A DNA stretch of 64,000 nucleotides from Escherichia coli (GTDB taxonomy: Bacteria > Pseudomonadota > Gammaproteobacteria > Enterobacterales > Enterobacteriaceae). The notes below the pieces were generated by a model that saw only the letters and a program-made list of their open reading frames with translations, was not told the DNA's origin and searched no databases. The DNA is taken from assembly GCF_013315695.1 (NCBI RefSeq), contig NZ_CP054353.1. One strand, given 5' to 3'. Below are positions 3,646 through 35,432 of this stretch, piece after piece. Positions within the stretch are counted from its first letter, which is position 1. The number at the start of each line of letters is the position of its first letter. A program made the position numbers and the translations under genes.

Positions 3646-4656
3646 ATGACGACGATGCTGGAAGTGGCGAAGCGCGCCGGGGTTTCAAAAGCGACCGTTT
3701 CCCGCGTGCTTTCAGGTAATGGCTACGTCAGCCAGGAGACTAAAGATCGCGTGTTTCAGGCGGTAGAAGAGAGCGGTTACCGCCCAAACTTGCTGGCGCG
3801 CAATCTGTCGGCGAAGAGTACTCAGACGCTGGGGCTGGTAGTGACCAACACGCTTTACCACGGCATTTATTTTAGTGAACTACTGTTTCATGCCGCGCGA
3901 ATGGCGGAAGAGAAAGGGCGACAGTTGCTATTGGCAGATGGTAAACACAGCGCCGAAGAAGAGCGCCAGGCGATTCAGTATCTGCTGGATTTGCGCTGCG
4001 ACGCCATTATGATTTACCCGCGTTTTTTAAGCGTGGATGAGATTGATGACATCATTGACGCACACAGTCAGCCGATAATGGTGCTTAATCGCCGCCTGCG
4101 CAAAAACACCAGCCATAGCGTCTGGTGCGATCATAAACAGACCAGCTTTAACGCCGTGGCAGAGTTGATAAACGCCGGACATCAGGAGATTGCTTTCCTT
4201 ACCGGCTCGATGGATTCCCCCACCAGCATTGAACGTCTTGCCGGGTATAAAGACGCGCTGTCGCAGCATGGTATTGCGCTCAATGAAAAACTTATCGCTA
4301 ACGGTAAATGGACGCCCGCCAGCGGGGCCGAAGGGGTAGAAACGTTGCTCGAACGTGGGGCTAAATTTAGCGCGTTAGTTGCCAGTAACGACGATATGGC
4401 GATAGGTGCGATGAAAGCGTTGCACGAGCGCGGCGTAGCGGTGCCAGAGCAGGTGTCAGTTATCGGATTCGATGATATCGCAATTGCCCCCTATATCGTT
4501 CCGGCGCTCTCCAGCGTAAAAATTCCGGTGACTGAGATGATTCAGGAAATTATTGGACGGCTGATTTTTATGCTCGATGGTGGGGATTTCTCACCGCCGA
4601 AAACCTTCAGCGGAAAACTGATCCGCCGCGGCTCCCTCATTGCTCTTTCGCAATAA
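3646..4656 (+). CDS. ascG: LacI-family transcriptional repressor of the asc operon
   Basis: N-terminal HTH (MLEVAKRAGVSKATVSRVL) and periplasmic-binding-like fold; divergent from ascFB; start chosen at MTTML. Confidence 0.9.
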   Translation: MTTMLEVAKRAGVSKATVSRVLSGNGYVSQETKDRVFQAVEESGYRPNLLARNLSAKSTQTLGLVVTNTLYHGIYFSELLFHAARMAEEKGRQLLLADGKHSAEEERQAIQYLLDLRCDAIMIYPRFLSVDEIDDIIDAHSQPIMVLNRRLRKNTSHSVWCDHKQTSFNAVAELINAGHQEIAFLTGSMDSPTSIERLAGYKDALSQHGIALNEKLIANGKWTPASGAEGVETLLERGAKFSALVASNDDMAIGAMKALHERGVAVPEQVSVIGFDDIAIAPYIVPALSSVKIPVTEMIQEIIGRLIFMLDGGDFSPPKTFSGKLIRRGSLIALSQ

Positions 4657-24205: not shown

Positions 24206-24298
24206 GGTGAGGTGGCCGAGAGGCTGAAGGCGCTCCCCTGCTAAGGGAGTATGCGGTCAAAAGCTGCATCCGGGGTTCGAATCCCCGCCTCACCGCCA
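24206..24298 (+). tRNA. serV: tRNA-Ser (anticodon GCU), long variable arm
   Basis: 93-nt sequence GGTGAGGTGGCCGAG...GGTTCGAATCCCCGCCTCACCGCCA with anticodon loop CUGCUAA. Confidence 0.95.
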
Positions 24299-24301
24299 TT
24301 T

Positions 24302-24378
24302 GCATCCGTAGCTCAGCTGGATAGAGTACTCGGCTACGAACCGAGCGGTCGGAGGTTCGAATCCTCCCGGATGCACCA
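24302..24378 (+). tRNA. argV: tRNA-Arg (anticodon ACG)
   Basis: 77-nt GCATCCGTAGCTCAG...GGTTCGAATCCTCCCGGATGCACCA with anticodon ACG. Confidence 0.95.
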
Positions 24379-24440
24379 TCTCTTACTTGATATGGCTTTA
24401 GTAGCGGTATCAATATCAGCAGTAAAATAAATTTCCCGAT

Positions 24441-24517
24441 GCATCCGTAGCTCAGCTGGATAGAGTACTCGGCTACGAACCGAGCGGTCGGAGGTTCGAA
24501 TCCTCCCGGATGCACCA
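24441..24517 (+). tRNA. argY: tRNA-Arg (anticodon ACG), identical copy
   Basis: Identical 77-nt tRNA preceded by an identical 62-bp spacer. Confidence 0.95.
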
Positions 24518-24579
24518 TCTCTTACTTGATATGGCTTTAGTAGCGGTATCAATATCAGCAGTAAAATAAATTTCCCGAT

Positions 24580-24656
24580 GCATCCGTAGCTCAGCTGGAT
24601 AGAGTACTCGGCTACGAACCGAGCGGTCGGAGGTTCGAATCCTCCCGGATGCACCA
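24580..24656 (+). tRNA. argZ: tRNA-Arg (anticodon ACG), identical copy
   Basis: Identical 77-nt tRNA preceded by an identical 62-bp spacer. Confidence 0.95.
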
Positions 24657-24718
24657 TCTCTTACTTGATATGGCTTTAGTAGCGGTATCAATATCAGCAG
24701 TAAAATAAATTTCCCGAT

Positions 24719-24795
24719 GCATCCGTAGCTCAGCTGGATAGAGTACTCGGCTACGAACCGAGCGGTCGGAGGTTCGAATCCTCCCGGATGCACCA
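24719..24795 (+). tRNA. argQ: tRNA-Arg (anticodon ACG), identical copy
   Basis: Identical 77-nt tRNA preceded by an identical 62-bp spacer. Confidence 0.95.
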
Positions 24796-27682: not shown

Positions 27683-27755
27683 AAAAAGGCCACTCGTGAG
27701 TGGCCAAAATTTCATCTCTGAATTCAGGGATGATGATAACAAATGCGCGTCTTTC
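27683..27755 (-). ncRNA. micA: MicA (SraD) small RNA, Hfq-dependent repressor of ompA and other envelope mRNAs
   Basis: Reverse complement reads GAAAGACGCGCATTTGTTATCATCATCCCTGAATTCAGAGATGAAATTTTGGCCACTCACGAGTGGCCTTTTT, terminator hairpin included; sits in the gshA-luxS gap. Confidence 0.9.
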
Positions 27756-31256: not shown

Positions 31257-31787
31257 TTAGCTCATCGCTTCGAGAACCACACCGTCTTGTTCCATCTGGT
31301 CGAGACGGGAGAGCAATTTGCGGGTGATTTGCTCGAGCTGATCTTTTTCTGTTGTGCTGAGCGCGGACCAGAGTTGATGCAGGCAGTTATGCTGCGGTGG
31401 TAAAACCTCGCGCAAAAACTCGTGACCTTTTTCCGTTAATTGCAGATGCAGGCAGCGGCGATCGTTATCGCTTTCACGACGTTCGATCCAACCGCGTTTT
31501 TCCAGTTCATCGGCAATACGCGTCGCGTTGGTACGGGATGATCCAAGAGCACAACTCAATTCAGAAGGCTGAATACTGTGGTTTTCCTGAGACTCCAGCG
31601 TAATCAACGCCATAAACAACGTCTCGTTAATCCCCTGAGCCTTCAGCATTTTATTGCGGTTCTCCAGCAGCTTGCTTTGCATATGCATGCAAAGACGGGT
31701 CAGAAGGATCTCCTGATAAGGAAAATCTTCGTGGCGGCTGGCGCGAAATTTTAGCATTTGTTCAATGGGCGTAAACGAACTATCCAT
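31257..31787 (-). CDS. mprA: MarR-family repressor of emrAB (EmrR/MprA)
   Basis: 176-aa MarR-type winged-helix ORF upstream of emrA. Confidence 0.93.
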
Positions 31788-31877: not shown

Positions 31878-32213
31878 TTATATAATCGCCATCACTTTCC
31901 AGGCGAGCCCGTAGGCCAGCGCACTAAGCAGTGTTGGGATGATAATGCTGCGTGTTTTATAGAAACTGGCACCCAGTACCGCGAAGCCGACCAGCGTGGG
32001 CACGAAACGGCGTGTATCGTGCATCACTTCTGGTGCGGTAGAGACAACCAGCAGAGCGCATATCGAGGCGATGCCAATGGTGTCGAGCAATATGCCTATC
32101 GTGCCACGTTTGGTTGGGCGGGCATTACCCACACGCAGGCGCAGCGGCAAATAGCGGAAGCAATAATTCGCCGTGCCAACCAGTAACCCAAGCAGCAAAA
32201 CCTCATAGCTCAT
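31878..32213 (-). CDS. ygaH: L-valine exporter small subunit (AzlD-like)
   Basis: 111-aa hydrophobic ORF overlapping the ygaZ stop. Confidence 0.88.
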
Positions 32214-32940
32214 CGGGCGCTCCTTGCCAGAATGCCTGGATTAACGCAGTGAGGCAGCCACAGACAATGCCTGCCAGAATGGCGACGGGAATAGAAAATA
32301 GCGTTACGCCTGCAAGGGCACCAACTAACGCTGCGGTAACGCAAAGAGATTGTTTGCGCTGGAAAGAGGCGAGCAGGAAACTCATAAAGAGTGCCGGAAG
32401 CATAAAACCTAATGCTGCTTCAACGGCGGGATATCCTTGCAGCAAGCCGCTGCCGGAGAATGCCCCTATTACCGTACCAAATACCCACGATGACCATGAA
32501 CTGAAGGCAATGCCGATCATCCAGTTTTCGCTCCAGCGGCGATTATTGCGTACCAGTTTTGCGGTTGCGGCGGCAAAAACCTCATCCGTCAGGCCAAACG
32601 CCCACAGGGCGGTTTTCGATTTTTGCAGACGCTGAATAATACGGCTACGCAGTGACGGGCCATACAAAACATGGCGAACATCCATTGCCATGACGGTCAG
32701 TGCAGCAACCCACAAACTACTCCCGGCTGCCAGCATCGCGGTAATGACGAACTGGCTCGCGCCTGCATAAATGATGCAGGAGAAAAAAACGCTTTCGAGA
32801 GGAGAGAATCCCAGACGGGTCGCATTCAGACCGAACGCAAAGGCCACCGGAATATAACTAATAACAATCGGTAAACTGTCTTTGCATCCTTCCATGAAGG
32901 TCGCCGAACCAGGAGCAGGCTGTGGAGTAGGGCTTTCCAT
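32203..32940 (-). CDS. ygaZ: L-valine exporter large subunit (AzlC-like)
   Basis: 245-aa membrane ORF. Confidence 0.88.
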
Positions 32941-33063
32941 AGAGTGTACGCTTAACGATTGTTAATATTATAAATAGACTGAATGAATATCTTAACCTTA
33001 TCAGACTGATGGGCTTCTTAACACCCTTATAAGGGTAAAGCCACGAAAACGGTTGCTGATTGC

Positions 33064-34248
33064 TTAATTTGCGGCTTCCTGACGATGAAAACCTCGCCAC
33101 CAGACCAGTAAGTTAACCAGGGCAATCGTCGCGCCAGCCAGACAAACGCCAGCCCAACCGCCATGTTGCCAGGCTGAGGCTGAAATTAGCGAACCGGCAG
33201 CGCCGCCAATAAAGTAGCTGGTCATGTAACCTGCAGTCAGGCGATTACGCGCATCGGGGTAAATTCGATAAATTACCGTCTGGTTAGTGATGTGCACCCC
33301 CTGTACGGTGAGATCCAGCACCAGGATGCCGATAACCAGCGCCAGTACAGAAGTGTGTCCAAACCAGATAGCCAGCCATGAAAGTAACAGCAGCAGCAGG
33401 CCGAAAGTTGTGGTGAGGTGTGATTTGCCCTTATCGGCAAAACCGCCCGCCGGACGAGCGCCTAACGCCCCGGCAGCTCCTGCAAGTCCGAACAGACCAA
33501 TTACGCCATCGCTGTAGTTAAAAGGTGGAGCGGCAAGCAAAAAGGCCATTGAGGTCCAGAGAATGCTGAAGTTGGCAAAGGTCAGGCAGCCCAGCAACGC
33601 GCGGGTGCGCAGGATTTTATCGCTGATAAACATGCTGAAAACGGAACCCAACAACTGTGGGTAGTTGAGGTGGGTTTCTGATTTCATTTGTGGCAGACCA
33701 CGCCATAATGCCAGCGCCATCAGTGCCATTAACATCGAAGCAACCCAAAAGACGGTGCGCCAGCCGCCGAGATTCGCCAGCAATCCGGCAACGGTCCGTG
33801 CCAGCAAGATCCCCAATAGCAGACCGCTCATAATGGTGCCAACCACTTTGCCGCGTTTGTCCGGTGAAGCCAGCGTCGCTGCCAGTGGAACCAGAATTTG
33901 TGCCACGACTGAGAATAAACCGGTTAATGCCGTACCGAGGATCATCATCGCCAGCGACTGACTGCTGGCAGTGATTAACATGCCGCCTGCCGCCAGTAAG
34001 GTCATCGAGACAATCAGGCGGCGGCGTTCAAACATATCACCGAGGGGAACAAGAAACAGCAGACCTGCGGCATAGCCCAACTGCGCGGCGGTAACAATAA
34101 AGCCTGCCGAACTGGCGGAAAGGGAAAAGTTACGCGCGATGGTGTCGAGCAATGGCTGGGCGTAATAGTTACTGGCTACCGCCAGACCGGTGGCGATAGA
34201 CATCAGCACGATCAGCGCCGGGCTAAGCTCATGATTAGGTTTAGTCAT
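33064..34248 (-). CDS. ygaY: MFS transporter (12 TMS); uninterrupted here
   Basis: 394-aa continuous ORF with MFS topology between ygaZ and proX. Confidence 0.8.
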   Translation of the reverse strand: MTKPNHELSPALIVLMSIATGLAVASNYYAQPLLDTIARNFSLSASSAGFIVTAAQLGYAAGLLFLVPLGDMFERRRLIVSMTLLAAGGMLITASSQSLAMMILGTALTGLFSVVAQILVPLAATLASPDKRGKVVGTIMSGLLLGILLARTVAGLLANLGGWRTVFWVASMLMALMALALWRGLPQMKSETHLNYPQLLGSVFSMFISDKILRTRALLGCLTFANFSILWTSMAFLLAAPPFNYSDGVIGLFGLAGAAGALGARPAGGFADKGKSHLTTTFGLLLLLLSWLAIWFGHTSVLALVIGILVLDLTVQGVHITNQTVIYRIYPDARNRLTAGYMTSYFIGGAAGSLISASAWQHGGWAGVCLAGATIALVNLLVWWRGFHRQEAAN

Positions 34249-34348
34249 TATTTTTGTTCATCAGGTGATGATTAAGCTGGAAATCAATAATAGCGGATGT
34301 TGATGAATATGGGATGAAAGATAGATTGTTGAAATGTGCGGTGTGGTT

Positions 34349-34431
34349 TGTAGGTATGATAAGACGCACCAGCGTCGCATCAGGCATTGCGTACAGAGCG
34401 GCGGATGAGGCAAAAACGCCTTATCCGCCCG
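34349..34431. repeat. BIME (two REP-like palindromic units) between ygaY and proX
   Basis: tgtaggtatgataagacgcaccagcgtcgcatcaggca and ggcggatgaggcaaaaacgccttatccgccc. Confidence 0.6.
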
Positions 34432-34439
34432 AATAAAAA

Positions 34440-35432
34440 TTACTTCTGCGCTGCCAGCGCTTCATTCACCCAGCCATCGAACTGCTGCTGGTGGGCTTTG
34501 ATCCAACCATCAACGTGGCCCTGAATATCGCCTTCTGAGGCTTTGCCGTCATGCATAATGGCGTTCTGGGCGTTAATATCTGCCACTGGTAACTGCATAA
34601 TGGCAAACAGTTTCGCTGCTGCCGGGTTTTTCTCGGCCCAGGCTTTGTTGGCAACGATATGCATGGTACTGACCGGGAAGCCGTAATTCGCGCCATTCGG
34701 CAGCTTAGTATCGGCATTTTTATCGCCCGGCAGCGCAGAGAACGGCACCTGCAACCAGACCACATCTTTCCCCGGTTTCAGTTCGTTACTCACCCAGTAC
34801 GGCGTCCAGGTGTAGTAAAACACCGGCTTACCCTCTTTGTAACGACTGATGGTGTCAGCCATCATCGCTGCGTAGTTCCCCTGATTATGCGTCACGGTAT
34901 TGGTCAGTCCATACGCGGCAAGCTGGTGGTTGATCGCACCTTCGCAGCCCCAGCCTGGGTTACAGCCGGTTAAATCCGCTTTACCGTCGCCGTTGGTATC
35001 GAACAGTTTGGCGATCTTCGGATCTTTAAGTTGCGCGATGTTGGTGATTTTGTACTGGTCGGCGGTTTTCTTATCGATCAGATAACCCTGTGCCGCGCCG
35101 TTAACAAATACTCCTTCACGATAAAATTTCTTATCGCCACCGGCAGCTTCATACATGTTGTCATGCAGCGGCGTCCAGTTCACGGCGGTGAAGGTTGCAT
35201 CGCCGGAAGCAAGTGAGGTGTAGCCAACGTTGTAATCCACTTCGCTGGGTTTATTGACGGTATAACCTAATTTCTCCAGTGCACGACTGACCAGCAGCGT
35301 CTGGAAGGTTTCTTCAGTGATGGTACTCTGAACTGGATTAACAGTAATGCCTTTGCCCGGCAGATCGGCAGCAAAAGTTTGTGTAGAGATAAGCGTGGCA
35401 AACGCTGTCGCAAAAAGTACGCTATGTCGCAT
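34440..35432 (-). CDS. proX: Glycine betaine/proline ABC transporter periplasmic binding protein
   Basis: Signal peptide [21 protein letters not shown]; start trimmed from the track ORF. Confidence 0.93.

Follow-up and report, generated by a model that had tools for sequence, protein, structure and literature searches.

Intact ygaY in Escherichia coli: a conserved gene for a predicted MFS transporter, with the K-12 pseudogene as the exception

The window analysed here, a 64,000-nucleotide stretch of Escherichia coli DNA, carries ygaY as one uninterrupted, ATG-started open reading frame (ORF) of 394 aa on the minus strand (33064..34248), exactly where an intact gene had been predicted. The best explanation is that ygaY is a core gene in Escherichia and Citrobacter and that the window has its ancestral allele, which is functional. 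Integrity does not vary broadly from strain to strain; it is K-12 that stands apart. The joint claim that the gene is ygaY, that it is intact, that the K-12 lesion is private to that strain and that the product is an MFS transporter is made with high confidence.

That ygaY is intact elsewhere and broken in K-12 is not new: thousands of RefSeq genomes have the unbroken gene annotated as an MFS transporter, and the K-12 reference marks a pseudogene. In the literature ΔygaY has been used as a pseudogene control, the 'crypticity' and in-frame stops of ygaY are mentioned, and the locus serves as a neutral site for chromosomal integrations. The finding matters little beyond bookkeeping. The present analysis adds precision, in that the K-12 lesion consists of one lost 7-bp repeat unit, private to K-12, in a gene otherwise unchanged with respect to a living wild allele. 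Wild-type ygaY is under strong constraint; as a conserved orphan transporter, YgaY could be studied in K-12 only once the 7 bases are repaired.

The ygaY locus and the K-12 lesion

The features of the window referred to in the text are as follows.

34440..35432, minus strand: proX (glycine betaine ABC transporter binding protein), upstream neighbour of ygaY, identified from the ORF and the MS 21-1 and K-12 annotation
34249..34439, minus strand: proX-ygaY intergenic region, 191 nt, with REP/BIME-like palindromes
33064..34248, minus strand: ygaY coding sequence, intact, 394 aa plus stop, identified from the ORF, Pfam MFS_1, identity with MS 21-1, the AlphaFold2 model and Foldseek
33981..33994, minus strand: perfect 7-bp tandem repeat GGCGGCA GGCGGCA at gene nt 255-268, codons 85-90, in TM3
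32995..32967, minus strand: promoter-like TTAAGA-17 nt-TATAAT in the ygaY-ygaZ spacer, 10/12 matches
32203..32940, minus strand: ygaZ (L-valine exporter subunit, AzlC family), downstream neighbour, identified from the ORF and annotation
31878-32213, minus strand: ygaH, next after ygaZ
31257-31787, minus strand: emrR/mprA, after ygaH and followed by emrA
24206-24795, plus strand: tRNA array of Ser(GCT) and then four identical Arg(ACG) genes with a 139-bp period
58596-58671, plus strand: lone tRNA with a CAT anticodon, probably an ileY-type gene
27684-27755, minus strand: the sRNA MicA, adjoining luxS and gshA

The minus-strand order in the window (emrA, emrR/mprA, ygaH, ygaZ, ygaY, proX, proW) is the K-12 order proVWX-ygaY-ygaZH-mprA-emrAB in reverse. 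The gene thus lies between proX and ygaZ, as in K-12, and its nucleotide identity to the K-12 locus is 96%. An MFS transporter coding sequence of 1185 bp annotated by PGAP in E. coli MS 21-1 (WP_000165687.1) is 100% identical to it. The allele is rare: matches of at least 99% identity occur in 5 of 5418 complete E. coli genomes, and among the matches listed the only one at 100% is MS 21-1 (human colon, USA), the next allele in that spread sample standing at 97.9%.

The original prediction described ygaY as a disrupted pseudogene in K-12, and this is correct: in K-12 MG1655 (NC_000913.3), b2681 (2808316-2809493, 1178 bp) has pseudogene status. The same intact ORF was looked for in that record and is not present there. 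The ygaY of a K-12-like record (strain 5A) likewise carries the PGAP note 'frameshifted'. Alignment with the K-12 ygaX/ygaY region, which had been proposed as a check, was run globally against MG1655 ygaY and gave 43 substitutions and a single 7-column gap in K-12, at gene nt 255-261. The gap corresponds to one 7-bp unit of the tandem repeat at 33981..33994. The window allele keeps both units, has no K-12-type deletion and is open to codon 394. In K-12 the frame is broken near codon 86 and runs into a stop at codon 89. What remains of the protein can be read in a different frame, and this explains why two genes, ygaX and ygaY, were formerly named here.

The intact alleles nearest to K-12 are those of LC-1302-2020 (human rectal swab) and 51008369SK1 (dog wound), in which the site reads CTG GCG GCA TGC GGC ATG. 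Their repeat is also perfect, GCGGCAT GCGGCAT, and is phased differently from the two GGCGGCA units of the window. The phasing was made by a change of the Gly88 codon to Cys (GGC to TGC) that preceded the deletion; codon 88 is accordingly GGC (Gly88) in the window allele and TGC (Cys88) in the K-12 haplotype. When one GCGGCAT is put back into K-12 ygaY, 0 differences in 1185 nt remain to LC-1302-2020 and 2 to 51008369SK1, so that K-12 lost one repeat unit and is otherwise unchanged. The deletion event is very recent, and replication slippage is its presumed mechanism. It causes the frameshift at about codon 86 and splits the gene into the pair of fragments that used to be listed as ygaX and ygaY. 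K-12 ygaY (b2681; formerly ygaX/b2680 plus ygaY/b2681) occupies the same locus as the window gene, and after repair of the frame the two proteins differ very little. The repeat is imperfect in the O157 and CI5-type alleles (GGCAGCGGGCGGTA).

Distribution of alleles and selective constraint

In a search with the full ygaY gene, 5418 of the 5426 complete E. coli genomes gave a match, in every case chromosomal. A single piece covering at least 80% of the gene is present in 5413 of the 5426, and the median copy number is one. To tell the alleles apart, a query of 120 nt with the K-12 junction at its midpoint was applied to the 5417 complete E. coli genomes with the locus. At least 99% identity, denoting the deletion allele, was found in 353 of these; the band of 95-99% contained 0 of the 5417. 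A further 5056 genomes fell at 90-95%, and here every match listed spans 127 bp, so that the extra 7 bp are present; the other 8 lay at 80-90%. About 93% of complete genomes therefore retain the 7 bases missing from K-12. A deletion on a non-K-12 haplotype would sit in the empty 95-99% band, and the deletion consequently occurs on K-12 flanks only. All 67 deletion carriers inspected (the best 60 of the 353 and 7 in spread samples) are K-12 laboratory derivatives, those among the best 60 including MG1655, C600, J53, DH5alpha, DH1, HMS174, NCM3722, RR1 and AG100. By these sequence comparisons, the 7-bp deletion belongs to the K-12 laboratory lineage alone. Phase variation of the 7-bp repeat was considered as a candidate and rejected, as no unit was lost outside the K-12 haplotype and the 95-99% band was empty among the 5417 genomes.

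The pan-genome check of frame integrity suggested with the original prediction was carried out on two systematic samples retrieved with different query alleles. Of 90 distinct non-K-12 full-length matches, 89 are exactly 1185 bp long and one is 1182 bp and in frame, which places a rough upper bound of about 3% on length-changing frameshifts outside K-12. Frame integrity was judged, out of 5418 copies, from alignment spans and from seven fully translated alleles; nonsense mutations were checked in these seven, and all are intact. The 1182-bp gene belongs to E. coli OkiPb01688 (NZ_AP042535.1, 3025911-3027092) and has an apparent in-frame 3-bp deletion in an allele otherwise 98.9% identical.

Among eight alleles, dS estimated by the Nei-Gojobori method ranges from 0.07 to 0.20 and dN from 0.000 to 0.0075, with dN/dS of 0.00-0.06 for all divergent pairs. 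Only 10 of the 394 residues vary among the alleles. Orthologues of 394 aa are found in Shigella, E. marmotae (98%), E. fergusonii (97%), E. albertii (95%) and Citrobacter (93%), and in Citrobacter the gene order is identical (nrdEF-proVWX-ygaY-ygaZ(AzlC)-ygaH(AzlD)-MarR-emrAB). Low dN/dS together with conservation of orthologue length and synteny is the signature of a maintained, functional gene. The original prediction had read strain-dependent integrity as the mark of a dispensable transporter. The gene is indeed broken in K-12, but the variability was overstated: the lesion is private to K-12, and intact alleles are constrained. The gene is dispensable in laboratory culture and maintained in nature. 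Purifying selection this strong, together with the conserved synteny, would be compatible with an unrecognised K-12-specific trait, with YgaY physiologically important and its absence affecting, for example, the transport of an organic anion or osmolyte linked to proU/ygaZH; no specific substrate is indicated, and we regard the idea as a long shot. If true, a function would have been systematically missed by K-12-based studies.

Lesions other than that of K-12 are rare, sporadic and independent. Strain S115 (urine) has a 19-bp deletion of nt 252-270 that overlaps the K-12 site, and its gene is flagged 'frameshifted' (locus sequence 1307-2472). A query for the S115 junction gave a full-length match in the S115 genome only. 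Six further records reached at least 95% identity, each covering less than 80% of the query; we infer that these are the six divergent alleles of the full-gene search and not extra lesions. Recurrent lesions at a K-12 hotspot were accordingly rejected as a candidate, the 19-bp deletion being found at full length in S115 only. In strain PCP06021 (seawater), a deletion of about 1.8 kb takes the 3' part of ygaY, the whole of ygaZ and the start of ygaH (locus sequence 4001-4463), leaving the 5' end of ygaY fused to ygaH. An exhaustive protein search returned about a dozen representatives of the frameshift or truncation type, with 77-99% identity to part of YgaY, some of which may be assembly errors. 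One longer protein was also found among the homologues (P0001, from an ENA contig of 5.4 kb), which has 596 aa and scores 1092 bits against the query at 72% identity, versus about 825 bits for near-identical proteins of 394 aa; it is probably a partial tandem duplication of ygaY or an assembly artefact.

Flanking spacers, expression and neighbouring genes

The 191-nt proX-ygaY spacer contains REP/BIME-like palindromes (GGGCGGATAAGGCG...CATCCGCC and GCCTGATGCGACGCTGGTGCGTCTTATCA). A promoter and terminator scan of its minus strand, in which match counts were no higher than in shuffled sequence, found no consensus sigma-70 promoter or terminator, and no obvious Shine-Dalgarno sequence precedes the ygaY ATG. 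The name ygaX is still used for the gene adjoining proX in the description of a high-affinity Hfq-binding genomic aptamer, 'ig-proX/ygaX', with a K1/2 of 11 nM (PMC2887942); this aptamer in the proX/ygaX spacer is all that was found in the literature under the name ygaX. In K-12, H-NS is reported to bridge ygaY and the downstream regulatory element (DRE) of proU. Transcripts of K-12 ygaY, a pseudogene background, are detectable and rise after hyperosmotic shock, especially without StpA.

An intact ORF could nevertheless be effectively silent, that is, cryptic, repressed by H-NS and poorly translated, in which case its intactness would have no functional meaning. The missing upstream consensus promoter and Shine-Dalgarno sequence would fit such a gene, as would the H-NS bridge, some H-NS ChIP signal and low transcript levels reported at K-12 ygaY, and the tolerated loss of the gene in K-12. 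However, dN/dS of 0.01-0.06 at dS of up to 0.20 is unexpected if the gene is unexpressed, and the 93% protein identity to Citrobacter, with the exact length kept and all family-conserved residues retained, also speaks against silence, which we consider very unlikely.

The constancy of the neighbourhood also raises the question of whether YgaY forms one transport module with its conserved neighbours, either the branched-chain amino-acid exporter ygaZH or the osmoprotectant importer proVWX. The order proVWX-ygaY-ygaZH-mprA-emrAB is kept from E. coli to Citrobacter on one strand, with spacers of 191 and 123 nt on either side of ygaY, and one paper uses the wording 'the yga operon'. Synteny among close enterobacteria is, however, expected from common descent alone. 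The promoter-like site just upstream of ygaZ, lying in the ygaY-ygaZ spacer, suggests that ygaZH can be transcribed independently of ygaY, and the K-12 annotation lists ygaZH as a functioning valine exporter despite the broken ygaY. Moreover, the neighbours are wholly different in four relatives with 45-57% identity, from Corticimicrobacter, Gilliamella, Bacillus and Rhodococcus. A shared module is very improbable.

Outside the enterobacteria the genomic context of YgaY is not conserved. A guilt-by-association comparison of the four distant relatives revealed no shared neighbour; that from Bacillus, alone of the four, has a divergent TetR regulator.

Fold of YgaY and comparison with known transporters

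The protein matches Pfam MFS_1 (PF07690) over residues 17-307 with 142.6 bits (cutoff 33.4; E 1.9e-41), well over the curated gathering threshold, and there is a weak match to Pfam MFS_4. An AlphaFold2 model calculated from a 68-sequence alignment has a mean pLDDT of 93.6 and a pTM of 0.91 and is all-helical, with 12 TM helices and a linker helix. The modelled helices comprise the following residues.

10-40, 45-71, 75-94, 99-126, 132-161 and 163-184: helices of the N-terminal half
196-209: linker helix
211-239, 247-272, 276-298, 301-329 and 331-393: helices of the C-terminal half, the last being two helices merged by DSSP

Superposition of the model on crystal structures of 12-TM MFS proteins gives TM-scores of 0.85-0.90 over about 384 columns. 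The full MFS topology that had been predicted thus holds, with the MFS_1 match, the 12-helix model and the superposition in agreement.

The closest fold relatives are members of DHA1, a family of drug:H+ antiporters (TCDB 2.A.1.2). In a Foldseek search of the PDB the top rank is taken by SotB (E 2.8e-12, TMq 0.85-0.86, TMt 0.88-0.90), followed by MdfA and NorA and, after these, by VMAT2, FLVCR, SPNS2, DgoT and GlpT. None of the curated models for the DHA1 subfamilies Bcr/CflA, Cmx/CmrA, EmrD and SotB-like was passed by YgaY (TIGR00710, 47.7 vs 200.9; NF033135, 51 vs 400; NF008654, 36 vs a cutoff of 479). All matches to NCBIfam models are far below cutoff, the best of full length being to SotB-like, Cmx/CmrA and Bcr/CflA models.

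At the level of motifs, a strict form of motif A (G-x3-D-R/K-x-G-R-R/K) was sought in the TM2-TM3 loop and, as a repeat, in the TM8-TM9 loop. The regular expression has no match, and the two sites carry variant sequences: 'PLGDMFERRR', in which D71 (67/68), R75 and R76 are conserved, and the repeat 'GGFADKGK', with D272 in 65/68. The antiporter motif C (G-x8-G-x3-G-P-x2-G-G) was not found in TM5, which reads RGKVVGTIMSGLLLGILLARTVAGLLANLGGW, and there is no G-P dipeptide in the whole protein. Residues conserved in helices across the family include Q31, P32, Q56, D71, R151 (TM5), D272, D312, Q316, N322, Q323 (TM10) and R336; all of these are present in the window protein, and among the polar ones D71, R151, D272, D312, Q316, N322, Q323 and R336 are each found in 60-67 of the 68 sequences. 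A conserved Asp/Arg pair lies buried within the helices of the model.

Relatives of YgaY are numerous. An exhaustive search yielded 1140 clusters (at the 50% identity level) with E of at most 1e-30, from Burkholderiales, Gilliamella, Bacillus, Rhodococcus and metagenomes. A typical member has about 400 aa and aligns with YgaY from end to end at 37-57% identity. When a functional name was sought among homologues and cluster members, only 'MFS transporter' and 'predicted MFS family arabinose efflux permease' were returned. In line with the original prediction, no substrate is indicated by a characterised relative, a conserved neighbour or a specific family model, and the homologue names are generic.

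By analogy with the closest folds, YgaY would be a 12-helix MFS secondary transporter that works by rocker-switch alternating access, most likely driven by the proton gradient and hence proton-coupled. D312 is a likely protonation site, and coupling may run through D312 and R151. As to direction, we lean slightly toward export, with a small organic solute as the best guess for the substrate. Export is favoured on two grounds: efflux proteins come closest to YgaY in full-length sequence and in fold, and the Bacillus relative lies beside the divergent TetR regulator.

Import is the alternative: YgaY would then take up an organic anion, for instance a carboxylic acid of aromatic or other type, by proton-coupled symport. 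The model of the aromatic acid/H+ symporter family (TIGR00895; for example PcaK, MhpT) gives YgaY its best NCBIfam E-value (1.5e-22, residues 20-187). The near-invariant in-helix arginines R151 (TM5) and R336, each in 67/68, would suit the binding of an anion, motif C of the antiporters is absent, and the Foldseek matches with comparable E-values also include two symporters, DgoT and GlpT. Against this, the TIGR00895 match extends over the N-terminal six helices only, at 80 vs 418 bits, and the best matches of full length, in sequence and in fold, are the efflux proteins SotB, MdfA and NorA. Symporters of the PcaK/MhpT type are longer (about 400-450 aa) and lie in catabolic clusters, whereas YgaY does not, and no catabolic genes adjoin it in E. 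coli, in Citrobacter or in the four distant relatives. Import is a serious but less probable alternative, and export remains the reading we prefer.

Among the efflux proteins, the DHA1 multidrug:H+ antiporters MdfA and NorA have a fold in common with YgaY (TMq 0.80-0.84) at 14-17% identity. They differ from it in possessing the antiporter motif C, with its G-P in TM5. Each of the proteins has a membrane-embedded acidic residue that could be protonated, but at different positions; the one in YgaY is D312 (TM10), shared by 61/68 sequences. SotB, the E. coli sugar efflux transporter of the DHA1 family (6KKI/6KKK/6KKL), is the best structural match, with an rmsd of 2.4-2.9 Å, and the sole full-length sequence match in the PDB (E 2e-5). 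The SotB-related sugar-transporter model PRK03545 gives YgaY 63 bits vs a cutoff of 401, and sequence identity between the two proteins is about 17%; both consist of 12 TM helices within about 390-400 aa.
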